A DNA stretch of 63,632 nt, filler included, from Psammoneis japonica (taxonomy: Eukaryota), in the NCBI GenBank assembly GCA_008632985.1. It is 7 parts of 6 records of this genome, joined end to end, with 100 filler letters (N's around TTAATTAATTAA, not from the genome) between each part and the next. Parts side by side here need not be neighbours in the genome. Positions count along the whole stretch, not along the records: positions 29,159 to 54,064 come from QPGO01000038.1; 6 more parts are not named here. One strand, 5' to 3'. Below the pieces are notes generated by a model. The model ran no database searches and was not told the DNA's origin. It saw only the letters and a list, made by a program, of their open reading frames with translations. A program made the translations under genes and the position numbers. Shown in pieces: positions 21,990 to 51,860 of the stretch. Position 1 is the stretch's first letter. Each line of letters starts with the position of its first letter.

Positions 21990-22089
21990 NNNNNNNNNNN
22001 NNNNNNNNNNNNNNNNNNNNNNNNNNNNNNNNNTTAATTAATTAANNNNNNNNNNNNNNNNNNNNNNNNNNNNNNNNNNNNNNNNNNNN
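21990..22089. other. Artificial contig-joining spacer
   Basis: N44-TTAATTAATTAA-N44, with stops in all frames. Confidence 0.95.
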
Positions 22090-29058: not shown

Positions 29059-29158
29059 NNNNNNNNNNNNNNNNNNNNNNNNNNNNNNNNNNNNNNNNNN
29101 NNTTAATTAATTAANNNNNNNNNNNNNNNNNNNNNNNNNNNNNNNNNNNNNNNNNNNN
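29059..29158. other. Artificial contig-joining spacer
   Basis: N44-TTAATTAATTAA-N44. Confidence 0.95.
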
Positions 29159-29519
29159 GCATGCCACGGGACCAACTGTGGACATGATGCGGAAGATTGC
29201 CGTCAGCTCAAGCACCACGTGAAACGTGTCAAGACTGGACATTCCAACAACGGAGGCGGCAAGCCCAACACAAAACCTCGGAATGAGGAAGATGTTAATG
29301 CTCTCATCGGATCGAAGGTCGAGGAGCACTTTGCCAATGCTCAGAAAAAGCGCAAGGCCCGCGAGGAGGAGCTTGATCACTTCCGCGACCTCAACCCAAG
29401 TGGTTCCGAAGACTCGGACGCCAGAGAAGGGGGCCGACACGATGCAGGCAGTTTTAATGCATTGGATGAATGTGTGAATGAACAACTGAACTACCATCGT
29501 ACACGTGTTGCAGGCCAAT

Positions 29520-30401
29520 CCCGCAAACGAGTTAAAAAGACTCATCTTGCTCCAATCTTGTTTGCAGCTGTGAATGCTGAACATGGCAAGGGCAAGACTC
29601 AAACCATTAAGACACTGCCAGACAGTGGCGCCAGCAGTGCTCCACTCGACAGTCGACACTGCAAACGTCTGCGAAGCCATTCAACGGCTGAGACAAACTG
29701 GCTACGGTGGCAGGCTCGTCTGGCACGTCTGACGACTGCACCGTTAAATTTCGGTTGCCAGAGTTGTCCGAAGCTGCAGAACTTGAGCATGCCGTCCACG
29801 CACACAACAGAAAGCAGGGCAAGTGCGATGTGATTGTTGGACGTGACATTCTGGAGACACAAGGCATTGACGTTGTCTTCTCCAAACAGATGACAGAGTG
29901 GCCATTGGTCAATGGAGAAGTGCCAATGAGGCACGTAGATGCTGCGGTGGAAACCTCCTTCTATCTTCAAGATCCAGAAGCCTTGTCTTCGGAAACCGAC
30001 CGGATTTCGCGCATTTTAGACGCTGAGCACGCGCCGGCCTGCCTCGAGGACATGACGCGAGGGGCAATGGGACTTTCCACAGTTCAACAAAACAACCTTT
30101 TGGCACTGTTGAAATGCCATGAGTCCTTGTTTGATGGGACATCAGGAGAATGGAAGGGAGAGCCCTGCCATGTCCAACTCAAGGAGGGTGTGGAACCATG
30201 CCATGCTCGTCCGCATGAAGTGCCTCGTGCGCACAAAGCTGCGCTGCGTAAAGAAGTAGAACACCTGGCACGTGTCGGTGTTCTCAAATGCGTCAACCGA
30301 TCCCAATGGGCAGCTCCATCATTTGTCATGCCGAAGAAAGATTTAACGGCACGCTTTGTTGATGATTTCAGAGAGCTGAACAAACGGATCAAGCGATTGC
30401 C
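29520..30401 (+). pseudogene. Gypsy pol 5' part: protease and RT N-terminus
   Basis: LPDSGAS, CDVIVGRDIL and SQWAAPSFVMPKKDLTARFVDDFRELNKRIKRLP. It ends at the Copia TSD. Confidence 0.85.
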
Positions 30402-30582
30402 GAATGAATGCCGATGCAGCCGCGTGGGGCAATGACAGCACCTTGAGCCCAAGAGCAGCAGCGACAAACCAAAGAGAACCCTGTGTCGATTAGAACGTGT
30501 GAGATTGTGGGAAAGAACAAACCACCAGATCGTGCGCGTCAGCCCCGGACCAGGGACTGACCGCTCCACCCAGATTTACTCG
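30402..30582 (-). repeat. Copia 3' LTR
   Basis: Direct repeat of 36358-36538. On the minus strand it is preceded by the G-rich PPT-like CGCGGGGAC. Ends are uncertain by about 1 bp. Confidence 0.9.
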
Positions 30583-30699
30583 GTCCCCGCGAAACGGCAG
30601 TGACAATGCCGATTCGTCTAAACCTGGAACATCCTCTCACAGAGAGGCAAACACAAAACCCAAATTCAGGCCACCAGCAATGCTGGCTTGGGAGGCCGA

Positions 30700-32674
30700 A
30701 ACAAGTGGGCGCGAGCCGCAGGTGTCTGGCCTTGGTGTCGGGGCTCTGCCAAAAGATGCAAGAGCAAAGTTTCCAATGCCGCTCTCCCGTCGTCACCTTC
30801 ACAAACAAATCCCGCCAAATTTGTGTCCGTGTCCTCCTTCCAACGCGAATGACGCCAGCCGCAACCGCTTCACGAACCAAATGACAGTTGACAGCATCAT
30901 GCTTCTTGTGCAACACAGATTCCGGAACACTGACGTTCTTCACCACGCCGCGGTTGTCGCAAAATGCATTGGCAGGGCCTTCAATCGGCACTCCAAACAT
31001 GCAAAGTTTGTGACGCAAAGCAACAATCAACTCCTTGCAAATGCGCATTGCAACCAATTCGCTGCCAAACGTCGCTGACTCCACTGTGTTCTGCCGCTTG
31101 CTAAACCAAATGATCGGAGCATTGTTCACGAATGTCAAAATCCCGCTGTGCGATCTGCGAGCAACAACGTTTCCCGCATGGTTGGCGTCAACAAATGCAG
31201 ACACATTTGCCGGGTTGCCACGGGGCTTGGGCATCCATGGCGGCAACTCCTCCTCAACGTCCCCATAAAACTCCGTCCAGTCCGCAGTGGAATTGAAAAC
31301 AGATTCGTCAATCACAGGCATCTTCGGGTCAAAACCAATGCGACCGACATTCAAATGCTTCTTCATGTGCGCGAACACATGGTGCAACGCTTCGAGGTGC
31401 CCTTTCCTTGGGTTGGCTTGACACTGAGAGAGAATAGAAACTTCATGCAAGATGTCGACACGGCCCAACTCGATCGCCCAACGACAAATGCCAATCAACT
31501 GCAAACACCTGTCCACCAAATCGGGTCCCAACTCGTCCGTCACGTCTAATTCCGGCTTGTGCTTAGAAGGCAGTGGGTCCCTCACATTGTTCTTCAAGAC
31601 TGCTCCGTCACCGTCCTCTTCTAACAGCCCTTCCACCGTCTTGATCGCCGACTTGACACACGACTTCGGCGAGCTTGCCCAAATGGTGCACCCATCTTTG
31701 GTCTGAACCTTCTCGACGTCGGCTCCAAGGCACAACGATGTCTCTCCTTCACTCCCAGGTTTGACAGCAAATGATTCACCCATGCTCTCGACAATGGATT
31801 TTCCTTGATGAGAAATGATTAGAATGTCGTCAACATGAACCAAAAGCATTTCATAATGCTCGTGCCCATCGTCACGAGTCGCCGCACGAACACAAACGTT
31901 GGGATCCGCCTTCGTTGATTCAAAACCCATGTTCCGTAAAACGGATGCCAATGCGGACCTCCAAGAGTGTCCAGAGCTCTTCAAACCGCACAGCGCTCGA
32001 GTCACAACTAGAACCTTGCCTTGGTGCTCTCCACATTCCCTGCCACCTTCGAACCAGATCTTCTCCGCACACGGGGCATTCAAGTGCGCGTTCTCCAGGT
32101 CGACAGCCGCAATGTCCACTCCATTCAATGCTGCCAGCAGGAATCCTAACCGCACGCCATCCCTCGAAACAACACTTGAGCATGTGATCGATGATGGTGT
32201 TTCCGCAGCATGACCTCCTGCAACAAATCTGGCCTTCCCAGTGAAATCCATCTTTGCGTCGAATGCCAAATGGCACCTGATCTCCTGACAACCACGCAAA
32301 GTTGCACTCTTGCCTTCCCGGACGACTTGAGGGGTTTCAGCTTCATGTTCGCGCCACGCTGCCTTGACCTTGTTCATCTCCTTGTCAATTGCGCGAGCCC
32401 AACAGTCCGTCCCCGTTTCCTGGTCAATCTTCAAAGCATCTTCCGTAGACTTGGGTAAACGTGTGCCGAACTTGTGGGCAGTGCGCCAATGTTTCTTCTT
32501 AGCCTTCGAGATGATGCGATTCCGCTTGCCTGAAACATGCGTGGCCCACCAAGCAAACGCCGGTTCTTCGGTTGACCTGTTCGCTGCAGCATGCTCAGCA
32601 AGCTCAATCGGGCTAGACTCCTTCAGATCCTTGAGTTTCACCCACGACAAGCTGCCGTCCTTCCATGCGACCAA
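30700..32674 (-). pseudogene. Copia reverse transcriptase and RNase H
   Basis: KARFVAGGH, DLENAHLNA, RALCGLK, LLVHVDDILII, FVDANHAG, SKRQNTVESATFGSE and FCDNRGV. Only 2 Tyr in the 711-aa ORF. Confidence 0.92.
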
Positions 32675-33156
32675 TGGGTTCCATCCTTTCGTAGTGTCTT
32701 CTTATGTTCGTTCCCGTCAGCTGTCTGAACTGTTCCTTCCTGGATCGGTGTAGCTTCGCCGGTCTTTTCGTGATCCTGTGTCTCCTGCAAAATAGAGTGC
32801 TGGTTGCCTTGCTGTCAACTTGAGCAAACACATTCTCCGCGATCACATTGGCAGCACGCTTGTCTCTGGCACCGTCTGTGCATTCAATCTCACATTCGCG
32901 GGTGTCAAACAATGGATTCTGATGCCGGGTTCCAATCAGTTGCCCATCCTGACCTCGTGCCCGCTTGACTGCGACTCCTCGCCGTTCAGCGTTAGTCCCA
33001 ACATCAAACACGAGTTCCATTCCAAGACATTGATCAATTGCCTGTTCGTCGTCGTCCTCGGGTCGTTCTCCTGGCAATGACATGTCCCCGCATTCCTCAT
33101 CGGTTGGTGTCACACCGCCTTCACATTCCATGCCGGGGTTGCCGTCGATCGCCAAA

Positions 33157-34020
33157 TCATCCAATGCAAATGCTGGTGCCCTTCGTCGCCTTGTAAAACG
33201 AAACTGGTGTCATCCAACCGTGCCCGAGTTGTTCGTCAAACTTGTCGACTTTCACACGAGTGTCCGGCTGCACCATGTCGGCCTGCGTTACATGCTCGAC
33301 CAAAGTCTTCGAAACCATCTTCCCGGATTCCGTGACAATCCAATGACACATGTCCGATCCGACCTTGTGAGACACACCAAGCCATCGTCCAAGCCTCCTC
33401 GGGTCATCTGTTACATTCGGCTTGTCGTGTCCATCCCACCACCAGACCAGATCACAGAAACCGAAGTCCAAACACTCGCCTGTTTTGGGTGTCTGACCAG
33501 TTGCCTCTTCACACCCAGTCCGTTTGTCGCGGCCTCTTGCCATGCGAGACACAAGTTCCGATTCACAAACTAGACCAAAATCCCACAATCGTTTCGGCAC
33601 CTTCTTCCTCGTCATCCGCAGGCGCCAACACTTAGCCAAGAACCCGATCTCTCTTTCTGCTGCGTGATTCTGATTCTTACGACCTTGTTCCGTTGTCCTG
33701 AGTTGGATCCTCATTCGACGTGTGTGTTTCACAAACTCAGTGCTTCGTCCTGTGAACTCTCCAGCACCATCCGACATGAGACACTCCGGCACTCCCACAT
33801 CGTCTGTAAAGTCAACGAGAGACAAACCTGCCTCCGACCTTGCGGTCATTGGCACAACCTTTACGAACTTGCCCTGAGCACAAACATTGGCACAAGTGTG
33901 CCGAGCAAAGACTTCACCTTGGACATTAACGTGTCCACAAACCATGTCCCTTTTGATCTTTTCCGATGCAGGTCCAAGTGATCCACCCTGACTCTCCTTG
34001 ACATTGGTTGGGTCACCGTC
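33157..34020 (-). pseudogene. Copia integrase
   Basis: WFVDT, DVGVPECLMSDGAGEFTG, QNHAAEREIG, VPKRLWDFGL and LGRWLGVSHKVGSDMC. Confidence 0.85.
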
Positions 34021-34444
34021 CNNNNNNNNNNNNNNNNNNNNNNNNNNNNNNNNNNNNNNNNNNNNNNNNNNNNNNNNNNNNNNNNNNNNNNNNNNNNNNN
34101 NNNNNNNNNNNNNNNNNNNNNNNNNNNNNNNNNNNNNNNNNNNNNNNNNNNNNNNNNNNNNNNNNNNNNNNNNNNNNNNNNNNNNNNNNNNNNNNNNNNN
34201 NNNNNNNNNNNNNNNNNNNNNNNNNNNNNNNNNNNGACTGGAGACAATCGAGTGAGTTCAGCTTCAACCTCGCCCCATTGGACTGCTTGAGACTTGGCCC
34301 TGTCGCTCTTCATTTCTGAAATCTGTTCCTGTCTCATGCCAGATGTCATCGAACGGACAGCGCGCATCTCAGATTGCTCCCTTGCACGCTGTGGTGAACC
34401 CACATCGACTTCCGTTGGACTCCACACGTCTCCTGTTGGCAGCA

Positions 34445-36120
34445 TCACTGGTGAGTTCTTCTCCTCCCAATCCGTGGAACACGAGACTTGAAAAATGCAA
34501 TTGTCCCCATGGAATTGAAAGGCATGAAAGCTTCATCAGCTTCGATTCCAAACCCATTTCGAGTGTCGCAAGGGTTGTCGTGTGCGGGCACATTGTGCGC
34601 TCGCAACTGATTGGGGTTCAACAATGAATGCTGCACGTCAGTTCCAAACCACAGCATTTGGTCTCCAACCAGCAAGCACTCGCGAGTCGTTTCCGGATCC
34701 GTCCATGCTGTGCAACAACGCGCCACAGGAATCTGTTTAACTGGCTCATGCGAATCTAGAAACGGGTGCACTTCACAGACTTCGTTCGTCAATTCCATGA
34801 GTTTCCAGTTAGCGCCAGCACAACAAGTGTCCGCATGAGTGTCACATTCGTTCCTTGCCATGAAGCCGGGTGTCGTTAAGTTCGTCATCGCGGTGGTGGT
34901 CGTTGACCTTGTCACACGTTTCGAAGTCACAGCAACGCGCCTTTTCGTTGCCTTCTCTTGCAAATGAAACATTGGGTGGGGTTTGGTTAACAACATGATG
35001 AGCAACATGAATGCAAATGATGTGTGTGCCAAATGCGCCAACGCTCCCGTAGTTGAAACCACCCCGATCAGTCAAACATGACCTTGACAGGCCCCTCGAC
35101 CGAAAGCGCGCCCATTCCTGCCACCACGATCACGGTCAGCTCCGCGACCGCGGCCACCGTTTTCACCTTGCGCTTGATCTTGCTGCCCTTGACCTTGACG
35201 GTCTTGAACCTGAGCTTCGGCTGCTTGCCTGTTGCCTCCGTCGCGTCCGCCTCTTCCTGCAGGGTTTCCTCGACCACCGCGTCCGTGCATCCTTTCACGA
35301 GCTTGAAAAACACAATTGAGACCTCCGTTAAAGCGCAATCTGTCCCATTCCTGGTCGGCAAATGTCCTCGTAGGATCCGACACATCGACTCCATCAATCA
35401 CAGTTGTGCGATCACCGCCCCTTCCTTGATGTCCTCCGCGTCCTCCACCACGGCCAAATCCACCGCCACGCCCACGACCGCCGCGATGGAAACCTCGGCC
35501 ACCACCGCCACCTCGGCTGATCTGAGAAATCTTGCGCTTCGCATGATGCCAGGCTTCCAACTGAGCACCTGCATGCAAACGAGAGACTTCGGATGAGAAA
35601 CAAGCACACGCCCCCGCGAAGTCACGAGGGCACTGGTTGCCAATGACGGCCGTAGCTGCCACAAGACGGGCATCCTCTGATTTGATGCCCTTCTGCAATG
35701 TTTCAACCTTCTGCCGAGCAGATGTGCTTTCATCTGGAACCTTGTCCAAAGTGGCAAAGGCACTGGTGAGTTTCTCCTTGAATTTCTCAAACGCAAGTGC
35801 ACCTTCCTTTTTGTAGAACTGGTCAACAACACCACAAACCTGCAATGCCGCGTCCACGTCAGCCGCCGCGGCCAAAGCCGCAAGTGCCACTGCTGGTGCC
35901 GCTGCCATCCTGTGACAAGAGAAACAGAGGCAACAACCCGCACAATGGGTCGCAATTTGGTGTGAGTGCGCATGGCACAGGAGGCCACACCGACCGGTGC
36001 TGTGACAACGGGTTCACGCAGCCAACTGACTTTGGGGTGATCAATCCCGTGTCGTTTCCATCGTGAGCACACGCTCGGGCATGCTGCCCAATGCCGCAGT
36101 CGCTCCACACCCGTTAACAA
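34445..36120 (-). pseudogene. Copia gag (RGG-rich C-terminus) and aspartic protease
   Basis: FEKFKEKLTSAFATL...KVETLQKGI, RGG repeats, DGVDVSDPTRTF, and protease ECDTHADTCCAGANW...SLLNPNQLR. Confidence 0.8.
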
Positions 36121-36342
36121 CATGGAGATGGTGACCATTTTGCGAGCATTTTCCGTTGCAAGCTGTTTCCTTTGGTCGTCATACGCGACACAGAGCACAC
36201 GCTGCACGCGACAACCCCCTTTCGACGCTGCGCGTGCGAATCAGTGCATTTTCTACAGCTGCTCGTTCCATGCACACAATCACAACAATCAACCGTTTGC
36301 AACGAGTTGTTTCCTTGTCCGTTTCGTTCAGCTTTTCATCAA

Positions 36343-36356
36343 TGGCTCTGATGAAG
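36343..36356 (-). other. Probable primer-binding site (initiator tRNA-Met type)
   Basis: The minus strand reads CTTCATCAGAGCCA next to the 5' LTR. The canonical iMet PBS is TGGTATCAGAGCCA; here TAT appears as CAT and the first three bases mismatch. Confidence 0.5.
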
Positions 36357-36357
36357 C

Positions 36358-36538
36358 AAACAAATGCCGATGCAGCCGCGTGGGGCAATGACAGCACCTT
36401 GAGCCTGAGAGCAGCAGTGACAAACCAAAGAGAACCCTGTGTCGATTAGATCGTGCAAGATTGTGGGAAAGAACAAACCACCAGATCGTGCGCGTCAGCC
36501 CCGGACCAGGGACTGACCGCTCCACCCAGATTCACTCG
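36358..36538 (-). repeat. Copia 5' LTR
   Basis: Direct repeat of 30402-30582. Confidence 0.9.
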
Positions 36539-36543
36539 TTGCC

Positions 36544-38824
36544 TCATCCGATTCCTCATGTCCAAGATGTGCCACTTGGGCTCAAAGGCTTTGTGTGGGC
36601 TGCATTGCTGGATTTAAACATGGGCTGTCATCACATCCGATTGGATGCTGACAGCAAGAAGCTCTGTGCGCTCATCTTCCCGTGGGGCAAGCATGAGATG
36701 CAGGCATTGCTCATGGGATTGTGCAACTCGCCAGACATTTTCCAAGAACGCATGTCAGGCTTGTTTGAAGATCTGTCGTTTGTTCGAACGCACTTAGATG
36801 ACCTTCTCGTTGTGACGAAAGGCACCCATGAAGATCACCTCAACAAACTTGAAGAAGTTTTGTTGAGGGTCCAGAAAGCAGGACTAAAAGTTAACGCAAC
36901 TAAATCTCACTTCTGTCAAACCCAATTAGAATGCTTGGGTTGTCTGGCTGACAGAGACGGAGTGCGACCAACACCTGATAAAGTCGACGCCATCAAGCGA
37001 ATCGCGACCCCAACCAACAAACGCGACCTGCGTTCATTTGTTGGCATGGTGAACTGCTGTCGCGACACGTGGATTAGACGTTCTGAAGTCTTGGCTCCGC
37101 CAACACGACTCGCAAGCGAGACTGTTAAGTGGGAGTGGACGTCCGTTGAAAACGAGGCATTCGAAACCGTCAAACGGGCAATGTCGGATGATGTTTTGTT
37201 GTCACATCCTGATTTTAACAAACCCTTTGAGATGCATGCCGATGCCTCTAAATGTCAATTGGGAGCAGTCATGTCCCAAGATGACAAACCTGTCGCCTTT
37301 TGCAGCAGAAAGCTCAACAGTGCGCAATTAAATTGTGCAACAACGGAGAGAGAATTGCTCGCCATTGTGAAGACGTTGAAAGAATTTCGAACGATTCTCC
37401 TTGGTCATCGTGTGATCACACACACTGATCATAAAAATCTTGCGCACAAAGTGTTCAATGCCGAGCGCGTCATGCGCTGGCGGTTGACATGCGAAGAATG
37501 CGGTCCCGAATTGCGCCATGTTAAGGGTGCCCACAACCCAGTCGCTGACGCTCTTAGTCGCCTTCGACTGGCACCCAGCTTGCCTTCCGAGGCCAATCCG
37601 GATGTAAAAGACACTCCATCGAGTCGTCCTTTGCATGAAGCCTTTAATGCAGACGCTCAAGATGAGCCATCTCTGCCTGTTAGCTTCAAGCGCATTCAAA
37701 AAGCACAACAAAAGGACAAGCGCCTGCTCTCACGAGCCAAGGACTCGTCCGACTGCTCCATTCGCGCGCATCGTGGGGAAGGGTCATCACGACAGTCAAT
37801 CTGTCATAAGGACAAAATCGCAGTGCCGCAGTCATTGCAGGTTCCGCTAACTGAATGGTGCCACGAGACACTGTGTCATCCAGGTGAGACACGTGCGGAA
37901 ATGTCCATTGCCCAGCACTTCTGTTGGCCTGGCATGAGGTCTGCGGTGCATTCTACGTGCGTTGAGTGCGATCGATGCCAGAAGACAAAACGCCGAACGC
38001 AGCATTGTGGGAAGCTGCCAGAAAAGGTCGCAGAGATAATTCCATGGGAGACTCCATGCACAGATGTGATGGGGCCACATAAAATTCAAAGACACGGAAA
38101 GGACACCTTGCAATTGTGGGCAGTCACAATGATTGACCCAGCAACCGGGTGGTTCGAGATTGAAGAAGTGTCTGCGAAATGCGCAGACATCGCAGCAAAC
38201 GTCGTGGAACAAACGTGGCCATGCAGACATCCGTGGCCAACCCAGGTGGTTTATGACCGTGGGACAGAATTTATGGCAGAATTCAGCCAGATGATTAAAA
38301 ATGACTGTGGGATTTTGAAGAAACCCACAAGTGAACGGAATCCACAGGCGAATGCCACAGTGGAACGTGTGCGCCAGACACTTGGCAACATGGTGCGTTC
38401 CTTTTCAGCACAGGACATGGAACTGGACGAAGATGACCCATGGAGTGGCATCCTCTCCGCAGTGGCCTTCGCCATTGGAGCTGCGGCACACACGACCACG
38501 CGTGCAAGTCCCATGCAATTGGTCTTTGGACGCGATGCGGTTTCATCTGTTGCCCATCGTGCCAAGTGGAAGCACATAGAAACCAGAAAGCAGAAGCTCA
38601 TCCACTTAAACAACAAGCGTGAAAATCAGAAACGCAAGGAGTGTCAACATGCCGCAGGGCAATTGGTGCTTGTCAAGCAGGAACAATCCTCTAAATGCGG
38701 TTCTAACAGCCATGCAGGACCCGCCAGTGTTGTCCGTGTGTGTGACAATGGCACGTTGTGCACCCAGAACGGAGCACTGACAGATGCGCACAATCTGCGG
38801 CAGATTGCACCCTGTCACCAGTGA
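36544..38824 (+). pseudogene. Gypsy pol 3' part: RT, RNase H and integrase
   Basis: LDLNMGCHHI, HLDDLLV, DASKCQLGAVMSQ, ERELLAIV, HTDHKNL, H-x4-H zinc-finger, YDRGTEF and NPQANATVER. One Tyr in 787 aa. Confidence 0.93.
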
Positions 38825-39289
38825 GACATTCTGTCACTTGACGGCCCTGATCATGGGGGAGTGTGCAGCATGCCTCGCTGCTGGACAACACGGTGAGACC
38901 GTGCATGAGCCTCTTGCACGTGGCAACGTGGTGTTGTTAACACGCACCTGGGAAGCACGACCACAGGAGGGCGTGGCTCTAGATCTCAGGCAATTCCAGA
39001 AGGATGCCAAGAGAGCATCCGTGTGAAGCACACCAGCCCGTCGTCTGGCCCACGATGGCAGCGTGATTCCACATGATGACATCACTCGTGCATGGCGCGT
39101 GATGGCGTGATTCGCACGATCCATGATGCGAACGCACGATCGATTTGATGCGATCCAAACGCGAACGAATGGGGATTTGGCAAGATTCCCCATTCGCACG
39201 ATCCCATTTTCTCTGCTCTAAACTAGCTCACAATTTTCACAACGACAAAGTCGCAACACATCTTCTTTTTCAGCGCCTGGTGCATGCAT

Positions 39290-39640
39290 GGGGCACGAGT
39301 GCATGGCTCTCTGCACTCAGTGAAATCCTGCTCAACGGCATGGAAAGAACACTTTGGCAGCTCAAGCTCATGCCCAGCTGCGCCCAGCAAATCATGCCAG
39401 AGTTGATTGTTGGGCCATGTCTTCAATTTAGACAACAAAGTGGCGGAAGACAAAGAATTGCTCACAGCTGGAGGTGTGCATTGATGGAGGTGCCAGACAA
39501 GCAACAAGGCAGCAAGGTTCAATTGGCTGGTGTCATGCTCCCCGACAGTGTTCCCCTCATGCCCCAAGTCCACGGACAGGGGAGGGACAGCAGGAGGTGC
39601 ACCTCTGGCCTGTCCAAATTGATGTTGACTCCATGTCCAA
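39290..39640 (-). mobile_element. Short non-LTR (LINE-like) RT fragment; second copy at about 52120-52465
   Basis: QLWHDLLGAAGHELELPKCSFH resembles the W..LL...GG.L...KC motif of LINE RTs. Confidence 0.45.
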
Positions 39641-39849
39641 AGTGCTCTGCTGCTGCATCCTCTGGAGCATCTGCTGCCATCCAATGTTTGAATGTCTTCG
39701 GATTGTCTTGAGGACCAGCTGGCACTTGAATGGTCTTGATGCTTGAGTCTGCTTTCTCCTTGAAAGCATCAATCTTTCGGAACACTCTCTTTGTCTCTTC
39801 TGCTTCTGCGCACTGCAGCTTGCAGCAGAGACCGCTGTTGGACGAAAAC

Positions 39850-40300
39850 ATGCCAAGATCTGGCAGCCGGCTTGCGTGGCTGTTCTTCAGTCTTCCAGCC
39901 TTCCATGCTTGCTTTTGCGTGTCCAGCCAATGTCCAAGTCTTTCTCCATTTTCAGGCTGTTTGAGAAGAGAAAACACAGTTTCCCAATGCTCAGCCAGAA
40001 TGTCCCACTTGGCTCTGGCCTTCTCCAGCAATTCCTGTTGAGAAGCATCAAGTTTCCTTTTCCTTGTGGCATCCCGTTGGTTGCTTGACCATTTTCCAAG
40101 GTTCTCCCAACCCTTGTTGTGGCACCTTGGCATGTTGCAATGTCCCTCCCGTTTCGTGAATTGCTTGAGAAGAGAGGGCATTGTGCCCCATTGATTTTCC
40201 CACAAGAGCCACTTGGCACCAGCCTCCTCAAGTTTTTCTTCTTTTTCAATGTTGAGCATGCTGAGCTTGTGTTTTGTGGCCACTGGTTGTCCAACCAAAT
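39850..40300 (-). pseudogene. Degenerate helicase-associated (HA) domain repeats
   Basis: W..M..LL.QF..REGHCNMP....LGKW..NQR.....LD..QQELLE and LGHWLDTQKQ. Confidence 0.65.
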
Positions 40301-40479
40301 TCCAAGAGCAAAGCCATCCTCAGCACATTCATTGGGAAGATCAGGCTGCAAGCAAAACATGGCGCCAATCTCAGCAACACAGCATTGTGGAAATGTGCTC
40401 TTTGTGCCAGAGGCATGTGTTTGTGAACAACATGGTTCACTGGCAGTGCTGCCAACAGATGCTCTCTATTTTCTTTTTT

Positions 40480-41717
40480 GCATGTTTGTTTTCCTTGAAA
40501 TGACATGCTTGTTTTCCTTGAAAAAACGTGCTTGTTTTCCTTGAAAGAACATGTTTGTTTTCCTTGAAACAACACGTTTGTTTTTGTCAAAACAATGTGT
40601 TTGTTTTTGTTGAAATGAAGTGTTTGTTTTCCTTAAAAAGACATGTTTGTTTTCCCTGAAACGACATGTTTGTTTTCCTTGAAACGACATGTTTGTTTTC
40701 CTTGAAAAGACATGTCTGTTTTCTGCAAAATGACATGTTTGTTTTCTTGAAAAGACATGTTTGTTTTTCTCAAAAAAACATGTTTGGTTTCCTTGAAACA
40801 ACATGTTTGTCTTCGTTGAAACAACATGTTTGTTTTCCTTGAAATGATGTGTTGGTTTTCCCTGAAACGACATGTTTGTTTTTGTTGAAACGACTTGTTT
40901 GTTTTCCTTGAAATGACGTGTTTGTTTTCCTTGAAACGACATGTTTGTTTTCCTTGAAAGAACTTGCATGTTTTCTTTCCTTGAAACAACATGTTTGTTC
41001 TCTTTGAAAAGACATGTTTGTTTTCTTTGAAAAGACATGTTTGTTTTCCTTGAAAAGACATGTTTGTTTTTCTTGAAAAGACATGTTTGTTTTTCTTGAA
41101 AATGAGTGAATGCTGTTTGTTTTCCTCAAAAGGACATGTTTGTTTTCCTTGAAAAGACACCTTTGTTTTCCTTGAAAAGACATGTTTGTTTTCAAGACAT
41201 GTTTTTTTCCTTGAAAACACGTGCATGTTTTCTTGGAAACAACACGTTTGTTTTCCTTGAAACAACATGTTTGTTTTCCTTGAAACAACATGTTTGTTTT
41301 CCTTGAAACGACATGTTTGTTTTCCTTGAAACGACATGTTTGTTTTCCTTGAAACAACACATTTGTTTTCCTTGAAACGACATGATTGTTTTCTTTGAAA
41401 CGACATGTTTGTTTTCCTTGAAATGCACGCTTGTTTTCCTTGAAATGACATGTTTGTTTTCCTTGAAATGACATGTTTTTTTTTTTAAACGACATGTTTG
41501 TTTTCCTTTAAACGACATGTTTGTTTTCCTTGAAAAGACACGTTTGTTTTTCTTGAAACAACATGTTTGTTTTCCTTGAAATGAAGTGTTTGTTTTCCTT
41601 GAAAAGACATGTTTGTTTTCCTTGAAACGGCGTGTTTGTTTTCCTTGAAACAACACGTTTGTTTTCCTTGAAAAGACATGTCTGTTTTCCTTAAAATGAC
41701 ACGTTTGTTTTCCTTGC
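40480..41717. repeat. 23-bp minisatellite array (consensus ACATGTTTGTTTTCCTTGAAACG), about 50 units
   Basis: Visible tandem units. The spurious ORFs have a 23-aa period, equal to 3 units. Confidence 0.95.
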
Positions 41718-42189
41718 AACAACTGGCATGGAAACTCTGGCGGCAAGCACCAACCTGAAAAGGACAAGCCCAGGATCTGGGCATGCCATTGCCCCATTGA
41801 AGAGTGGAGGGCTCCTGACGGTCCTGAGCAAAAGCAAGTTGAGAAGCTCCATGAGGCCAAGAAAGCTGGGAAAAAATGCAAAGCAGCAGCTGCATCCTTG
41901 GAGGCTGAGTCGGTCGATGCTGACACTCACGCTGTGAAAAGGACGGCTGTTGCCAAGCCTTAACCTGCTGATGAACAAAAGGACTCCAAAGAGTCAGATG
42001 AGCCACCTGCTGTCTGCACAGGCATGCAGTTTGGATGCAGCGCCCACAAGAAACCTCAGAAGGAGGAACGAACAGTTGTGCCAGCACCAAAAGGCATGGA
42101 GCCAACTGTTGCTGCACCTGCTGGCACTGTGCATTTATCCAGGTGATTCCCAAAGAACACGTGTGTCTCTTTGTCATCTGCTGGACATT

Positions 42190-42700
42190 CACATGGTGAA
42201 GCAACCAATGGCTTGGACTCGCACGCTGATGCGTGCGCTGTTGGGTCCAAATTTGTCATGTGCTCTGATGTTGACTGCGCTGTTGCAGTGCATCCTTGCT
42301 CCGAAGAGTGTGCGCCAATGAGGAGTGCTCTCATTTGTGCGGCTGCTGCCATGTGGGTTGATCCAACCAATGGATGGCCACACCTGCTGCCAGTCCATGA
42401 GGCTGTGTTTTTTGGGGACAGAATGACTGACACCCTGCTGTGCCCCAAACAACTGCGAGCGAGTGAGCTGACTGTCCACAACACCCCTCGCCAGTTTCGT
42501 CCCAACAGCACACACTCTGTTGTTTTCCCTGACTCGAAAATCAGGATGCCTTTGTGCACGCAAGGTGTTGCTGTGGTCTTTGACTCACATGAGCCAACTC
42601 AGGAGGATCTGGAGAACCTCCCCCGGCTGGAGCTCACATCACCCCTTGGATGGGAACCTTCTGCTGATGCCGCAGCACAAAAGGAGGAAGAGCGCGCATG
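42190..42700 (+). mobile_element. Copia protease-region fragment; partial copy at about 45240-45455
   Basis: GLDSHADACAVG...HEAVFFGDRMTDTLLCPKQLR...TPRQF. Confidence 0.75.
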
Positions 42701-42964
42701 TGCCAGTGTGCGCAAAGGACCAGCAAAGTCTGATGGACAGTTGACAATGGATGGGTTCCAGCCCCAGGTGGGACTTTTTGTGACATTTGCCCCGTGGAAT
42801 TCTGCGTGCGAGCTCTCTGCAGTTCGCACTCTGGTCAATGGACACATTTGTCTTCAACACAAAACAAATGGCCAAGTTTGCAGTGCATGTGTCTCTGTTC
42901 GCACTCGAAGTTTTGGACAACACGGCTGCCCTGCGCCATTCTTAAGACACTCGAGAATGGCGCA

Positions 42965-43850
42965 GAAGAAAAAAACATCAAAAGTTGCTGAATGGATCGC
43001 CTGACATTTGCACCATAAAATGATGCAAAATTTCACCAAAATCACGTAGAAATCTGCGTGCACGACATGCGACGTGATTCAAAAAACTGTCAATGTCACA
43101 ATTCAGCAGTGCGAGGTCCCACCCAGACCTGGAATGCGTCAATGATGAGTGCGACCAGGTGTGTCACTTCAACTCATTTGTGCCAGACGTCCCACAAAAA
43201 TGAGAGCATCATTGTGGATGCAAATGATGGCGATTCTCTGCATGCTGCTTGGTTGCTCAGGTGAGTGTCTCTCACAACCACATTGGGGGAGACGGGCCAC
43301 ATGACTGGCACAGTCTGTGCGTCCACCTGGATTGTGCTGAGTGGAGATGGGTGCATGCACTGTCGACCTTGAGTTGTGCATCGACTGTCACACCCAAGAT
43401 GCTCTCCAAGAGGTGGGACATTGGCCTGATGGCCGCCAAGAACACCCTCCGAGTGACAACCCAGGCAGGGGCCAGCAACGTCAAGATCATGGGTTGCGTG
43501 AGCTCTGGGTGCACGCTCAAGGACTAAAGTGTCTGCGAGCTGGAGGAGCAATTGGGCGCCCAGATCAGAAAGTGCCAGTTGTCTGACTTGGAAAGCAAGG
43601 CACGCTGGGCCATGTCCTCTGACCTTTGTGTCAAGTGGGAATTGACTGATGTTGAGCTGGAGCTGAAGAAAACTGAAAGGCGTCTTCCGACAAAGGCGTC
43701 AACCCCCTTGAGACCGCGGCACAGGCCTGAGCTGGACAGCTTGCCTGAGTTGAGTGCCAAAATGGCCAACTGTCATCAAGGCTTTGTTGGTGTGCTCCGA
43801 GTTGTTTGTTTTTCTTGAAAAGACATGTTTGTTTTTGTCAAAAAGACGCG
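42965..43850 (+). mobile_element. Composite repeat containing fused Copia pre-integrase and RT fragments; second copy at about 52470-53370
   Basis: VTPKMLSKRWDIGLMAAKNTLRVTTQ is joined directly to WAMSSDLCVK...HRPELDSLPEL...HQGFVGVLR. Confidence 0.7.
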
Positions 43851-44433
43851 CTTGTTTTTCTTGAAACGACATGTTTGTTTTCCTTGAAACGACATGTTTG
43901 TTTTCCTTGAAAAGACATGTTTGTTTTCCTTGAAACAACACGTTTGTTTCACATGTTTGTTTTTGTTGAAACGACATGTTTGTTTTCCTTGAAACGACAT
44001 GTTGTTTTTCTTGAAACGACGTGTTTGTTTTCCTTGAAAAGACATGTTTGTTTTTTTTTGAAACGACATGTTTGTTTTCCTTGAAAGGACATGTTTGTTT
44101 TCCTTGAAATGACATGTTTGTTTTCCTTGAAAGAACTTGCATGTTTTCTTTCCTTGAAACAACATGTTTGTTTTTGTCAAGACAACATGTTTGTTTTCCT
44201 TGAAATGACACGCTTGTTTTCCTTGAAAAGACATGTTTGTTTTTCTTGAAAAGACATGTTTGTTTTCACTGAAATGACATGTTTGTTTTCCTTGAAAAGA
44301 CACATCTGTTTTTCTTGAAATGACATGTTTGTTTTTCTCAAAAACAAGATGTTTGTTCAACATGTTTGTTTTCTTTGAAAAAACATGTTTGTTTTCCATG
44401 AAAAGACATGTTTGTTTTCCTTGAAAAGACATG
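43802..44433. repeat. 23-bp minisatellite array
   Basis: Same unit as 40480-41717. Confidence 0.93.
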
Positions 44434-44434
44434 T

Positions 44435-44763
44435 GGGCAGGCGGTGGGAGCCACCACCCACAAGAGCCGTGCCTGTGCACAGATTGCTGCCGCGAAGTGC
44501 ACCAGATGGGGTCATTTTGCTTTTGACCAGTGCGTGCAATGCCATCAGAAGGCTTGCGATGACTTGTCTGAGCTCGACGAGCCAGCGGCCGAGACCAAGA
44601 AGGTCTCTGACTTTCTCAAGGGTGTTTTCGACCCTGGGTTGGAGACTGGTGAGAGTGCAGTGGATGGAAATCTGATGAAGCCAGCAGACTTCAAAGCATG
44701 CCAGCAGTGTGCAAAGATTCTGGTGGAGAATGCCAAGAACCACAACGCTGATGCTTGCATGGC
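44435..44763 (+). mobile_element. Copia gag fragment
   Basis: FAFDQCVQCHQKACDDLSELDEPAAETKKVSDFLKGVFDP. Confidence 0.6.
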
Positions 44764-44994
44764 TCAGTGAGCCGAGCATGCACATTTCTCATTTGACCAT
44801 CGCAGGTCCATCTTGTGGGGGGTGTCAAAATGTCGTGCTTCAATGTGCGAATTTTCAATTTCACACAACCTCAACAACTGCACACACAATGTGACGATTG
44901 ATCCTCGAGACGCATCAAAGCACAACGTTTTGGCACCCCCCACAAGACAGACCTGTGATGGTCAAATGAGAAATGTGCATGTTCGGCTCACTGA
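44764..44994. mobile_element. MITE-like foldback element, 231 bp with ~84-bp terminal inverted repeats
   Basis: 44764-44847 (TCAGTGAGCCGAGCATGCACATTTCTCATTTGACCATC...) is the reverse complement of 44911-44994, with a few transitions. Confidence 0.85.
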
Positions 44995-45108
44995 AGGGAC
45001 CCCAAAGACACCACCATTTGCACTCAATGATCGATTTTGACCAAATGCACACTTTTTGCCACACCCGACTTTTGCCAATTTTGCCTGGTCAATCCGTGGA
45101 TGCGGTGT

Positions 45109-45808
45109 TAAAAAGACATGTTTGTTTTCCTTGAAACAACATGTTTGTTTTCCTTGAAACAACACGTTTGTTTCACATGTTTGTTTTCCTTGAAACGACA
45201 TGTTTGTTTTTCTTGAAACGACGTGTTTGTTTTCAAGGCCTCGATGTTGCAGTGCATCCTTGCTCTGAATGTCCCCATTTGTGTGGATGCTGCCATGTGG
45301 GTCAATCCAGCCAGTGGACAGCCACACCTGCTGCCAGTCCACTGGGCTTTTTTTTTCAGAGACACAATGACTGACACCCTGCTGTGCCCCAGCCAACTGC
45401 AAGCAAGTGAACCGACTGTCCACGACACCCCTCGCAAGTTTGATCCCAACAGCGCACACTCTGGACGTCCACCAGGATTGTGCTGAGTGGAAACGGGTGC
45501 ATGCGCTGTCGACCTTGAGTCGTGCATCAACTGTCACAACCGAGATGCTCTCCAAGAGGTGGAATGTTTGTTTCCTTGAAATGACACGTTTGTTTTCCTT
45601 GAAAAGACACGTTTGTTTTCCTTGAAATGACATGTTTGTTTTCCTTGAAAAGACACATTTTTTTTCTTTGAAACGACATGTTTTTTTTTTGAGTGACATG
45701 TTTGTTTTCCTTGAAACAACACGTTGGCTTTCCTCGAAATGACACGTTTGTTTTCCTTGAAATGACTTTTTTTTGAAACGACGTGTTTGTTTTTCTTGAA
45801 ACAACATG
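45109..45808. repeat. Two short 23-bp minisatellite blocks (45109-45235, 45563-45808) flanking Copia fragments
   Basis: Same unit as 40480-41717. Confidence 0.85.
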
Positions 45809-46359
45809 AGTTTGCCTTGAATTCTGCACAAGAATGCACTGACGGATGCAAACCAATGCGATTCCATGTGCAGGAGAACAGCATCTGCACCCCACAAGAA
45901 GCTCGCGCCTGTCCCCAAGTTCAGTTGGATTCATGAGACTGCAATGTGCAGCAATTTGTTTGGTTGATCCTCTCCCAGATGAAGATGTGTGACACCTCTG
46001 GAATGCTTGAACAGCACCCGCAACTGAGCAACTCCTTGTTTGATGTCTGGCGGTCAAAATCCTCCACCGCCAAGAGCTTGTGGGCCACACAAGATGAGTT
46101 GTTTTGTGTTTCAGCTGCACCCACATTTGACAATGTGAGCCGCACTGCTTTCTGTCAAGCGGCAAGCAAGTGCTTGGGGAGAAAGTTCTTGTCAGGGTGA
46201 GCACAGGTCATTGAGGAGAGATGACATGCATGGCAGCATCTCCATGTTTCTGCATGACAAAGCGAACAAGATCAAAGGAAAAGAGCTGCAGCATCGCTCT
46301 TGTGTCGGAGTTTCTTCAGCTGAGTCTTCTGGGCACCAATTGGAGCCAAGCAGTGGTTG

Positions 46360-47400
46360 TTGCAGGGGGGCACTGAAGGGACACAGCCCACTGGCAGGGC
46401 ACTGATCAAACAAGATTTGCGGCGCAAGTGTTTGGCGCTGGGGGCACCTTTGAGGCTTTGTGCCCTCAGCCATGTTGTGCAATTCTAGATTTTGTGCCCT
46501 TGACCTTTTTGTGCCCTTGGCTGTTTTGCACCCTTTCCTTTTTTTGTGCCCTTGAGCACTTTGCCCCATCTCGTGGTTTTGTGCCCTTGGCCATTTTGCG
46601 CCCTTTGTGACTTTGTGCCCTTGGCCATTTTGTGCCTTTTTTGGCTTTGGGCCCTCAGCCGCATTTGGCGCCCCTCCTGATTTTGTGCCTTCAGCAATTT
46701 GCAGCATGCATGCAGACAAAAGGTCATTTTTGTCACGCCCTTTGTGACATTTAAAGGCTGCAACACATCGCCGTGATGCATTGGCTCTTGTCAGTGGCTG
46801 TGTGTTGCACTCCTCCCCATGCATCACGCGTCCATGCGGCTCTTTACCAACGTGTGCTGACACTGCACGGTTTTGGCGGAACAGTGTGGGTGCGTGCGAA
46901 GGAACACACAGAACTGCACAGAGTTTTGCGCTTTCGACAGTGATCAACGTTGCTGCAGACAACTCCCACTCGGGTTTCGAACCCCTGGCCTCCTGCCCAG
47001 TGGTTGCGATGTGCCACTCCGCTGTGAATTCACAATGCAGCATGCATGCAGACAAAAGGTTGTTTTTGTCACGCCCTTTGTGACATTTAAAGGCTGCAAC
47101 ACGTCGCCGTGATACATTGACTCTTGTCAGTGGCTGCACATTGCAAATTTTTGGCCATTGTGGTTTTGTGCCCTTTGCCACCTTGGGCCCTTTCTGATTT
47201 TTTGCCCTTGGCAGCTTTGTGCCCTCAGCCACCATTTTGCACCCTCAGCCATTTTGTGACCTCAGCAACTTTGTGCCCCTGCCTGGTTTGTGCTCTTTGT
47301 GATTTGGCGCCCTCAACAGACATTTTTTGTCCTTTTTGATTTTGTGCCCTTGGCCATTTTGCTGGTCACGACAGAGCTGCAGAACAACAAGAACCTGCCC
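46360..47400. repeat. Degenerate TTTGTGCCCTT-core repeat blocks, homologous to 50880-51860
   Basis: TTT(T)G(T/C)GCCCT core roughly every 17-20 bp. An internal duplicated insert occupies 46700-47140. Confidence 0.8.
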
Positions 47401-47419
47401 GATGAAGAACGCGGGGCAA

Positions 47420-49060
47420 AGGAGAGAAAGTGCGCGAGATGCCTGAAGCACTTCATGGCAGGGAACTCCAAGAATGGAGATGCAGAAGGGAGCACACCCA
47501 GGAAATGCAAGAGGGAGGATTTTTGCAGGAAGACTGTGGCAGAGTGTGGCAGGAAAGCGGGGGAGGGGGGCAGTGGGTTGGGGGATGAGGAAAGCCACGT
47601 GGGGGGTTGGACCCAGACACATGAGCTGGAGCCAACACCTGTTTGGCAGAGAATGTGTGAAAAGTGGCAGTCACGTTTGTTGCAAATGACGTTGCAGGCA
47701 CAATCCAAATTGAGCGACTGCGCTCCACGGTGCCAGCCGGAGAGCAACCGGGGAAGGGCACAACACAAGCGGCACTTTGGGAAGCCAGTCAACCAATCTG
47801 TTGTCAGTCAGTTGTCGAATGTGTTTGAGTGGGCGCGCCGGAGTTTTTGGCCCGCTCGCTTTCTACGTGGCCTGGTGCAACCCAAATCTGTGTGGGCTCA
47901 GCACGCTTTGCCCTGCAGAACAGTTTTTGGGAGTGTTCTCTGGCTCGCGGCTCAAAATGGCACACAAAACGGCATGGACAATGGCGTTTTGCCAAGTTGA
48001 AAAATGTGATTGTCTCTGAGGTCGGAACCTGGATGCTCTCAACAGAGTTCGGTTTGTTGTGTCATCTTGTGCGAGATGAGCTCAAGAGCGCCCAGGCTCA
48101 CATGGGCAGATTGTGGCGAAAATTCTTGCTGAAGGTTCGCATTGACAATGTCGCTTCTGTTGCTTCACAACCAGCCTCATGCACTGCCATTTGTGCTGTG
48201 TGTTTTGTCGAGGCTTCATGTGTTTGCAGCCGTTCAATTTGCGTGCAATTTCTCTTTCTGCGCTGTTCTTTTGTTCTGTGGGGTCTCTGTTGTCATGAGG
48301 CACCCCAGAGACACTTTTTCTTGTCTAGAATGTCATCTCTAAAGTGCAGTGGCCACGGCAATTCAGTGACGAAGCCAAGTCACAGACACAGCATCAGGAA
48401 GAGTTCAAGACAAACACGGCAACTTGGAGCCATGACGTCTTGAGCTGGTTGAGCTCTCAAGAGCTCAGACACATCATCGCGCAGCTTTGACAACATTTCT
48501 CCCCCACTGTCCATGGTGATGCTGAGTTTGATTTGGCAGACCAGCGCATCATGGTGACTCCAAAGGCAAAGATTGCTTCTTTTGGCTGTGGGGCTGTTTG
48601 CAACCTGGGAACATGTGGCTTGTTTGCATGAAAGTGCGCGAGATGCCTGGAGCACTTCACGACAGGGAACTCCAAGAACGGAGATGCGGGAGGGAGTGCA
48701 CCCAGGAAATGCAAGAGGGAGGCTTTTTGCAAGAAGATTGTGGCAGAGCGTGGCAGGAAAGTGGAGGAGGGAGGCAGTGGGTTGGGGGATGAGGAAAGCC
48801 ACATGGCGGGTTGCACTGAGACACACGAGCTGGGGCCAAAACCTGTTTGGCGGACAACGTGTGAAAAGCAGCAGCCACCTTTGTTGCAAATGACGTTGCA
48901 GACACAATCTAAATTGAGTGACTGCATTCCATGGCACCAGCTGGAGAGCAGCTGGGGAAGGGCACAACACAAGCGGCGCTTTGGGAAACCAGTCAACCGA
49001 TCTGTTGTCAGTCAGTTGTTGAATGTGTTTGAGTGGGTCCGCCGGAGTTTTTGGCCCGTT
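47420..49060 (+). repeat. Local dispersed duplication (about 47420-47860 vs 48630-49060; 47860-48280 vs 50260-50660)
   Basis: Shared text such as GGGGATGAGGAAAGCCAC...GTCAGTCAGTTGT. Confidence 0.75.
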
Positions 49061-50879: not shown

Positions 50880-51860
50880 TTGCAGGGGGCACTGAAGGGA
50901 CACAGCCCACTGGCAGGGAGCTGATCAAACAAGATTTGTGGCGCAAGTGTTTGGCACTGGGGGCACCTTTGAGGCTTTGTGCCCCCAGCCATGTTGCGCA
51001 ATTCTTGACTTTGCGCCCTTGACCTTTTTGTGCCCTTGGCTGTTTTGCGCCCTTTCCTTTTTTTTGCCCTTGAGCACTTTGCCCCATCTCGTGGTTTTGT
51101 GCCCTTGGCCATTTTGCGCCCTTTGTGACTTTGCGCCCTTGGCCATTTTGTGCCTTTTTTGGCTTTGGGCCCTCAGCCATGTTGCGCAATTCTTGACTTT
51201 GTGCCCTTGACCTTTTTGCGCCCTTGGCTGTTTTGTGCCCTTTCCTTTTTTTGTGCCCTTGAGCATTTTGCGCTTTTTGTGGTTTTGTGCCCTTGCCACT
51301 TTGCGCCCTTTGTGACTTTGCGCCCTTTGTGACTTTGTGCCCTTGGCCATTTTGTGCCTTTTTTGGTTTTGGGCCCTCAGCCATGTTGCGCAATTCTTGA
51401 CTTTGTGCCCTTGACCTTTTTGTGCCCTTGGCTGTTTTGCGCCCTTTCCTTTTTTTGTGCCCTTGAGCATTTTGTGCTTTTTGTGGTTTTGTGCCCTTGC
51501 CATTTTGCGCCCTTTGTGACTTTGTGCCCTTGTCCATTTTGTGCCTTTTTTGGTTTTGGGCCCTCAGCCGCATTTGGTGCCCCTCATGATTTTGTGCCTT
51601 CAGCAATTTTTGGCCATTGTGGTTTTGTGCCCTTTGCCATTTTGGACCCTTTCTGATTTTTTGCCCTTGGCAGCTTTGTGCCCTCAGCCACCATTTTGCA
51701 CCCTCAGTCATTTTGTGACCTCAGCGGTTTTGTGCCCCTGCCTGGTTTGCGCCCTTTGTGATTTGGTGCCCTCAACAGACATTTTTTGTCCTTTTTGATT
51801 TTGCGCCCTTGGCCATTTTGCTGGTCACGACAGAGCTGCAGAACAACAAGAACCTGCCCA
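50880..51860. repeat. Degenerate TTTGTGCCCTT-core tandem array with a higher-order unit of about 190-200 bp
   Basis: Repeated blocks CAGCCATGTTGCGCAATTCTTGACTTTG at about 50987, 51174 and 51378. Confidence 0.85.

Follow-up and report, generated by a model that had tools for sequence, protein, structure and literature searches.

Loss of TA dinucleotides from a dead Gypsy retrotransposon of Psammoneis japonica, probably through a TpA-erasing process acting on DNA

What kind of mutation can replace conserved residues throughout a retrotransposon protein and still leave a long frame open? The question is raised by a Ty3/Gypsy pol copy at positions 36544-38824 of a 63,632-nucleotide stretch of the Psammoneis japonica assembly GCA_008632985.1 (the window, hereafter), whose motifs were described in a first-pass annotation as systematically recoded at TA-containing codons. 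The loss of TA was upheld by our analysis but its placement at the level of codons was not, as the pattern is one of dinucleotide mutation in all DNA of the contig, including a nested Copia element and non-coding sequence. We consider it very likely that a process acting at the DNA level, in which TpA is turned into TpG or CpA (A:T to G:C), caused the odd motifs. The Gypsy fragment itself is ordinary, and the rare hypermutation is its distinguishing mark.

The pol lies within an open frame of 810 codons at 36392-38824 on the + strand, made up as follows:

36544-38824, + strand: 3' two thirds of a Ty3/Gypsy pol (end of the reverse transcriptase (RT), RNase H, integrase zinc finger and core), open frame
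36392-36543, + strand: long terminal repeat (LTR) and target-site duplication of the nested element, read through and not part of pol (frame codons 1-51)
Frame residues 64-184: RVT_1, Pfam, above the cut-off
Frame residues 249-342: RT_RNaseH_2, Pfam, above the cut-off
Frame residues 274-366: RT_RNaseH, Pfam, above the cut-off
Frame residues 478-535: Integrase_H2C2, Pfam, above the cut-off
Frame residues 556-651: rve, Pfam, 24.1 bits, under the cut-off of 32.6

The order of domains in the frame (RT, RNase H, integrase) is as in Gypsy. Relatives align from about residue 45 of the frame onward only, and position 36544 is the first base after the target duplication of the nested Copia.

The reference set comprised 120 Gypsy relatives with 50-59% identity to the frame, and a column was called conserved when it was at least 90% conserved in these relatives, unless another threshold is given. 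Compared with this set, the frame is nearly devoid of tyrosine (1 of 810 residues, 0.1%, vs 2.9-4.8% across the relatives) and rich in both cysteine (4.0%, relatives at most 2.5%) and histidine (4.8%, relatives at most 3.5%). The RT box does read HLDD (CAC TTA GAT GAC, 36791-36802), and its first residue is tyrosine in 100% of the relatives; the ancestral box had been given as YLDD and is in fact Y-I-D-D in this family (I in 93%). The sequence MGCHH (ATG GGC TGT CAT CAC, 36620-36634, with TGT at 36626 and CAT at 36629) stands at columns that hold Y in 98% and 100% of relatives, and the proposed ancestral residues were likewise recovered for NCCR (from 37052, for NYYR; Y in 93% and 100%), AFCSRKL (from 37295, for AFYSRKL; Y in 93%), APPT (from 37094, for APLT; L in 100%), HTDHKNL (from 37421, for YTDHKNL; Y in 74%) and EECGP (from 37493, for EEYGP; Y in 51%, the remainder F). 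CQLGAVMSQ (from 37253) is present and its M column is ancestrally isoleucine (92%), but the tyrosine of 'YQLGAV' was supported only partly, with Y in 29 of all 120 relatives (18 of the closest 30) and T in 59. All told, seven of the eight tyrosine columns in the named motifs have the expected tyrosine as their most frequent residue. HLDD or NCCR was shared by none of the 120 relatives, whose conserved tyrosine columns are Y in 93-100%.

The differences from the family are strongly directional. The frame departs from the relatives at 47 of 317 conserved columns, and 42 of these 47 differences are a single base change away from the conserved residue. TA-erasing changes (G after T, or C before A) account for 32 of the 42 one-step differences, with three of CpG type and seven others; by comparison, TA-creating changes make up just 257 (4.8%) of the 5361 possible non-synonymous, non-stop single-base reversions of the frame. 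The mutation types at conserved sites are therefore not random, and the earlier view that TA codons had changed directionally to TG and CA, on both strands and unlike ordinary ageing, is borne out. At looser thresholds the TA-erasing share drops (50 of 83 at 70%, 57 of 109 at 50%) because real family variation enters. Every one of the 18 conserved tyrosine columns has been lost, ten to cysteine and eight to histidine, and all seven changes of threonine to alanine have a T before the codon (T-ACN to T-GCN). At the DNA level, 36544-38824 contains 30 TA, 210 TG and 221 CA, with no strand asymmetry between the latter two in the Gypsy pol; other blocks of the window lean either way. Dinucleotide odds in the frame 36392-38824 are 0.22 for TA, 1.63 for TG, 1.41 for CA and 0.84 for CpG, alongside 0.99 for AT and 1.16 for both AA and TT. 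A general drift from A/T to G/C, or GC-biased conversion, was rejected because the AT odds are not lowered.

The mutation type also explains how substitutions can be so dense without new stops, as had been noted, since it is stop-neutral. An A to G change after T can do no more than turn TAA into TGA, and a T to C change can produce no stop codon at all. As TA erasure removes TAA and TAG and adds no stop, the open frame needs no selection, and selection for it was rejected on the same ground. Stops are common across the six frames of the pol region (about 1 per 33 codons, mostly TGA), so composition does not account for the 759-codon pol frame, which is inherited. The frame has lasted because the prevailing type of mutation adds no stops and changes of other kinds are few. 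Tyrosines, including that of the RT box, were lost first because every tyrosine codon is TAY.

Controls run with the identical script did not reproduce the pattern. In a host coatomer exon, TA-erasing changes were 1 of 16 one-step differences and four of five tyrosine columns were kept. Twelve related metagenome Gypsy loci gave 1 of 56 overall, each keeping 16-18 of the 18 tyrosine columns; some of these loci may encode proteins of the reference set, which would lower the number of differences but leaves the tyrosine result unaffected. TA odds across 80 related metagenome loci were 0.52-1.08 (median 0.78), and no TA-erased relative (TA odds below 0.4) was found among these 80, a set whose selection by protein likeness favours intact copies.

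A replicate is provided by the Ty1/Copia element that is nested within the Gypsy RT:

30402-36538, - strand: nested Ty1/Copia inside the Gypsy RT, 6.1 kb (LTRs, target-site duplication, RVT_2)
About 30402-30582 and 36358-36538: Copia LTRs of 181 bases, 96.0% identical over 176 bases
30397-30401 and 36539-36543: Copia target-site duplication TTGCC, 5 bp
34022-34235: N gap in the Copia
Within 30542-32701, - strand: RVT_2 (Copia-type RT), Pfam

The Copia was compared with 120 relatives of its own (50-67% identity), those with names deriving from the diatom Fragilaria crotonensis. It differs from them at 30 of 229 conserved columns, in 25 cases by one step, and 19 of these 25 differences are TA-erasing, vs 4.3% expected. 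Its 14 tyrosine columns now hold histidine in seven cases, cysteine in five and tyrosine in two. Judged by these comparisons, the TA-erasing signature is replicated in a second, unrelated superfamily that is nested in the opposite orientation.

The two Copia LTRs further indicate when the change took place. They differ as CA vs TG at 30450/1, as TG vs CA at 30500/1, by a TG:CA-type double at 30405/6 on the LTR edge, and as TA vs CA at 30577; the remaining differences are one CG vs TG and one transversion. A TG:CA double arises when both copies of an older TA are lost in separate events, one on either strand. Since the LTRs were identical at integration and now differ mainly at TA, the pair shows that TA erasure acted on the DNA after integration. 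Six paralogous pairs within 39-54 kb hold a further 24 TG:CA doubles, with other classes of double reaching at most three per pair.

As a separate observation on the Copia relatives, three proteins from European Nucleotide Archive (ENA) assemblies (P0301, P0320 and P0275) carry cysteine or histidine at 7, 5 and 5 of 22 conserved tyrosine columns, while the other 117 of the 120 relatives do so at no more than one of the 22. It would seem, then, that other public assemblies also contain Copia copies with part of their TA erased.

Further copies of the Gypsy family were found in the contigs of a sequencing run, X1, which match 53% of the sampled 31-letter words of the stretch exactly. A total of 6134 contig pieces matched the stretch, 1295 of them at least 99% alike, and this number of pieces implies that the Gypsy family is highly repeated. 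Transitions account for 1028 of the 1217 places tallied by kind at which the run differs from the window. Among the best-supported 40 of 1220 differences, the window has TG or CA where TA is found elsewhere in 13 cases (two of which belong to TG:CA doubles), and the opposite in one. Unmutated TA sites are thus present in other copies. The relatives, the reads (13 vs 1) and the TG:CA doubles all point the same way, and on these sequence comparisons the direction of change is A:T to G:C, with TA as the older state.

What is left of the Gypsy is one inactive copy, in two parts, of a retrotransposon present in high copy number in a diatom-like nuclear genome. The genome is called diatom-like on the basis of a coatomer-beta exon on a neighbouring contig, whose named best hits (74-80% identity) are all diatoms. 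The 5' third of the Gypsy pol lies on the far side of the Copia:

29432-30401, + strand: Gypsy pol, 5' third (protease region, start of RT), tblastn

The full-length relative P0001 (1096 residues) aligns by tblastn through its residues 329-1096 to 36527-38821 in a single frame, through residues 2-125 to 29432-29809 in frame 2 and through residues 101-334 to 29701-30402 in frame 1, which places one frame change in the 5' pol part between 29701 and 29809. Pfam searches of both frames of 29432-30401 matched no family. The reported absence of indels therefore holds for 36544-38821, but not for the whole element with its 6.1-kb insertion and 5' frame change. On its 5' side the Gypsy is truncated by the contig start at 29159, so the 5' LTR is absent from the window; the interval 38931-39279 has the highest summed contig depth in run X1 and is compatible with the 3' LTR, for which it is a candidate. 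The pol copy is a dead member of its Ty3/Gypsy family and lacks the intact Y-x-D-D; the Copia insertion, the 5' frame change and the missense load, including loss of the RT catalytic tyrosine, are what make the Gypsy dead.

Not every TA was lost with equal ease. Measured against the pol DNA of 20 relatives, TA sites in the 2281-base pol compare by flank as follows (R, purine; Y, pyrimidine):

RTAY (ATAT, ATAC/GTAT, GTAC): 20.5 per kb expected, 0 seen
Mixed (one matching flank): 30.7 per kb expected, 4.4 per kb seen, 14% kept
YTAR (TTAA, CTAA/TTAG, CTAG): 13.9 per kb expected, 8.8 per kb seen, 63% kept

Some 148 TA would be expected in the pol and 30 are seen, which amounts to about 120 erasing events in 2.3 kb and a loss of roughly four fifths. 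When host DNA served as the baseline for 29159-39500, the ranking of RTAY, mixed and YTAR was unchanged, and in the extreme block 39501-54064 YTAR is mostly lost too. By these counts, TA loss is strongly flank-dependent, with RTAY going first and YTAR last. Tyrosine codons of Gypsy and Copia that follow a pyrimidine became cysteine in 11 cases and histidine in six, and those that follow a purine in 10 and 15 cases, respectively (p = 0.21). A 5'-TAY-3' rule agrees with the product counts of the extreme block and disagrees with those of the moderate one. The flanks appear to influence the site as a whole, with no clear confinement of the effect to one strand.

The extent of TA loss was followed along the window, which is a chain of contigs joined by linkers (44 N, TTAATTAATTAA, 44 N) at 21990, 24839, 29059, 54065, 59789 and 62056. 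The Gypsy sits in a 24.9-kb contig (29159-54064) that is TA-poor throughout, and the relevant blocks are:

29059-29158: linker; TA changes abruptly at 29.1 kb because of this joint, not because of a genomic border
29159-39500: moderately TA-erased, 0-8 TA per 500 bases vs 16-33 expected, CpG near expectation
39501-54064: extremely TA-erased, degraded repeats and satellites, 0-3 TA per 500 bases vs 13-54 expected, CpG about half of expectation
54165-57125: TA-poor part of the next contig, normal TA density being regained between about 57126 and 57270

The moderate block holds 95 TA where the host regions lead one to expect about 35.7 per kb, a reduction in density to one fifth. Across the erased DNA of the window, TA odds range from 0.22 down to 0.00. 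TA density is restored within about 150 bases at 57.1-57.3 kb, the sole border that lies inside a contig. The host-gene contigs (subtilase, D27-like, cohesin loader, RIO1 kinase, coatomer), which are separate from those with erased DNA, are spared, with TA odds mostly of 0.43-0.76 and one 2-kb bin of 0.33. TA loss is thus a dinucleotide process that affects all DNA of the Gypsy contig, whether Gypsy, nested Copia, non-coding or the satellite-rich stretch, and it is both faster than CpG decay and separate from it.

As to mechanism, an enzyme aimed at silenced mobile DNA could act on integrated copies, where adenine in 5'-TA-3' would be deaminated to hypoxanthine and then read as G at the next replication. 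For adenine deamination, the most economical chemistry to propose, we see about an even chance. The adenosine deaminases of tRNA act on U-A-C in the anticodon loop, while ADAR favours a 3' G; as a lead only, the preference for a pyrimidine after A would fit the tRNA deaminases better than it fits ADAR.

A precedent comes from the chlorarachniophyte Bigelowiella natans, for which Mettrop et al. (bioRxiv 10.64898/2026.01.13.699255) describe TpA-only hypermutation of integrated giant-virus and virophage DNA. In the mutation-accumulation lines that they report, all 20 new virophage mutations and 210 of 211 in the integrated giant virus were A>G or T>C; of the 231 new mutations in the two viral regions, all but one were thus of this kind, and all of those fell on TpA. 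The authors' proposal is that adenine in DNA is deaminated to hypoxanthine, for which they name an ADAT2-like candidate. The likeness is close, as far as the preprint's account goes: TpA is the only target, TpG or CpA results according to strand, the change runs counter to the usual bias, from A:T to G:C, it is limited to foreign DNA in a nuclear genome, and in the long term it leaves low TpA with high CpA and TpG. Reverse-transcriptase and transposase Pfams are, moreover, enriched among the TpA-depleted genes reported there. The systems differ in that the host of the one is a rhizarian and of the other a diatom, and the targets are mainly single-copy viral insertions in B. natans, but high-copy LTR retrotransposons and satellite-rich DNA here. 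Erasure is partial in the former (Rho TpA of 0.45 in the giant-virus region) and reaches 0.22 to 0.00 in the latter; the main text of the preprint gives no flank rule beyond TpA, whereas an order of RTAY, mixed and YTAR is seen here. Finally, the mutations of B. natans were watched arising in culture, while ours are deduced from sequence. The preprint's main text does not mention diatoms.

Several other explanations of the pattern have to be weighed against such a DNA-directed activity. The one that survives best, although we hold it to be unlikely, is a different chemistry or cause: the T of TpA could be the base that is targeted, for example through oxidation to 5-hydroxymethyl- or 5-formyl-uracil mispairing with G, as formyl-uracil does, or the pattern could stem, with no dedicated mutator, from a bias of repair or replication in compact chromatin. 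The nearly equal numbers of TG and CA in the pol (210 and 221) and the action of flanks on the whole site suit this view, the sequence data being silent on which base of the pair was attacked. A passive bias would, on the other hand, hardly clear every RTAY and leave CpG close to expectation over the same 10 kb, nor would it be likely to end within about 150 bases at 57.1-57.3 kb. In B. natans the reported rate is 1000-fold over background and the process is on in some lines only (Mettrop et al.), which speaks for a regulated activity.

That the RNA was edited before integration, through ADAR-like A-to-I changes on retrotransposon RNA followed by reverse transcription, is very improbable. It would agree with the elements being retroelements, and A>G with a preceding U is the preference of ADAR, as the Discussion of the preprint points out. 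The Copia LTRs, however, derive from one template and yet differ as TG vs CA at two to three places, both strands are affected about equally, and the satellite-rich, non-retroelement DNA of the contig is even more TA-free. The surviving TA sites are, besides, those followed by G or A.

At methylated motifs, some long-read base callers are prone to systematic A>G and T>C errors, and an artefact could in principle arise if a TA modification in repeats were misread during sequencing or polishing. The only run found (X1) may be the assembly's own data, which leaves room for this, but we regard it as scarcely plausible. The contigs of that run match 53% of sampled 31-letter words exactly, with 1295 of 6134 pieces at least 99% alike, and TA is readable in this very repeat family, since other copies show it where the window has TG or CA. 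The differences are also copy-specific, as shown by the TG:CA doubles between LTRs and between paralogues, and the N gaps of the assembly are sized, as is typical where short reads or Sanger data have been scaffolded. The mutations in B. natans were called from Illumina reads (Mettrop et al.).

Least credible of all is a native composition poor in TA and tyrosine, or ordinary ageing with CpG deamination: CpG decay does feed TG and CA (CpG drops to about half its expected level at 39.5-54 kb and further at 55.5-57 kb), and the window's host DNA already has TA odds of just 0.5-0.6, but none of 80 related loci has TA odds below 0.4, relatives retain their tyrosine columns while this RT box has lost its catalytic Y, and CpG-type changes are only 3 of 42 one-step differences, with pol CpG odds of 0.84.

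Several points nevertheless weigh against the reading of TA loss as enzymatic editing of mobile DNA. No modified base or new mutation was observed in this analysis, nor any enzyme, no search for deaminase candidates having been made, and oxidation of thymine at TpA yields a sequence pattern identical to that of adenine deamination. A simple one-strand target, 5'-TAY-3', found no significant support (Fisher p = 0.11 for Gypsy alone, 0.21 with Copia). Ancestral states were taken from relatives of only 50-59% identity and from 40 of 1220 read differences, and run X1, as possible source data of the assembly, is no independent proof against a sequencing artefact. Because the window is a chain of contigs, only the edge at about 57.1-57.3 kb is genuinely genomic, and because all TA-poor DNA here is repeated, targeting of mobile DNA, of repeats or of a chromatin state are inseparable.

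Other known systems resemble the TA loss in part. Repeat-induced point mutation (RIP), as found in Neurospora and other fungi, acts chiefly at CpA and creates TpA and stop codons. It has in common with the process seen here that it makes dinucleotide transitions at the DNA level, inactivates transposons in place, shows sharp edges and affects both strands. The change that it makes is described as C>T (PMC7296669, PMC3318451). Here, by contrast, TpA is depleted, CpA and TpG are enriched, and no stop can arise. ADAR and APOBEC3 share the use of clustered, deaminase-driven transitions against foreign nucleic acid, and U is preferred before the A that ADAR edits (preprint Discussion). ADAR, however, acts on double-stranded RNA, whereas the Copia LTR pair shows change after integration and so not in an RNA intermediate; APOBEC3 deaminates C in single-stranded cDNA before integration. 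A further difference is that the surviving sites here carry a 3' purine. Methylation-driven decay of CpG likewise feeds TpG and CpA, and it is seen in the older blocks of the window (39.5-54 and 55.5-57 kb), but it is separate and slower here, as TA is down to one fifth in 29.2-39.5 kb while CpG is near expectation.

In a full-text literature search, the B. natans preprint was the only description of a TA-erasing pattern found, and the single diatom paper mentioning hypermutation (PMC9258296) uses the word for antibodies. The kind of hypermutation is thus known from a single 2026 preprint; new here are its occurrence in a diatom, transposons as its targets and the preference for RTAY. That a TA-only signature has come near completion in the transposons of a diatom-like genome suggests that a genome defence, as yet without a name, is more widespread, and it provides a second system in which the enzyme could be sought. 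It is conceivable, although we would sooner bet against it than for it, that one enzymatic defence is common to diatoms (stramenopiles) and chlorarachniophytes (rhizarians) and edits the adenine of RTAY sites in the duplex nuclear DNA of silenced mobile or viral elements. If so, nature would have its own base editor for adenine in DNA, a 'reverse RIP' that kills elements through the erasure of tyrosine codons without making stops, and the defence would be either ancient in the SAR (stramenopiles, alveolates and Rhizaria) supergroup or acquired repeatedly. A duplex-DNA adenine deaminase with a four-base preference would, if real, be of interest to base editing. On the practical side, mutated copies keep long frames, from which gene callers report proteins with cysteine or histidine for tyrosine, and TA-free domains distort composition-based analyses of diatom genomes.

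Some further features of the window concern its TA-poor DNA and its surroundings. Arrays of a 23-base satellite occupy 40481-41720, 43803-44434, 45566-45766 and 53307-54064, all within the block most devoid of TA; the unit itself has no TA, is present in up to 54 copies and gives a long repetitive open frame in one frame. At 39522-40319 on the - strand, TA-free DNA holds an open frame with two helicase-associated (HA) domains, perhaps a non-transposon gene in mutated form. In the next contig, the stretch 55510-56780 contains 1 TA and 7 CpG in about 1.3 kb, making it the most eroded in the window for both dinucleotides, and it adjoins a block with less erosion (54165-55500), a contrast suggesting that insertions which differ in age are nested at 54165-56780. 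The short contig at 59889-62055 carries a PIF1-like helicase frame (60252-61757), possibly derived from a Helitron, and is moderately TA-poor, with 38 TA in 2.2 kb and TA odds of 0.26 in the 2-kb bin from 60001.

Lastly, 22090-24838 and the reverse complement of 57256-59788 have a 2.5-kb stretch in common (BLAST, 99.25% identity), which is TA-normal, is without a Pfam match and begins where the TA-poor domain ends. The pair may represent alleles or a recent duplicate. Its five base differences are all A/G, namely three TA vs TG, one CG vs CA and one AA vs AG; the three TA vs TG sites are CTAC, CTAC and GTAC, with the TA in either copy.

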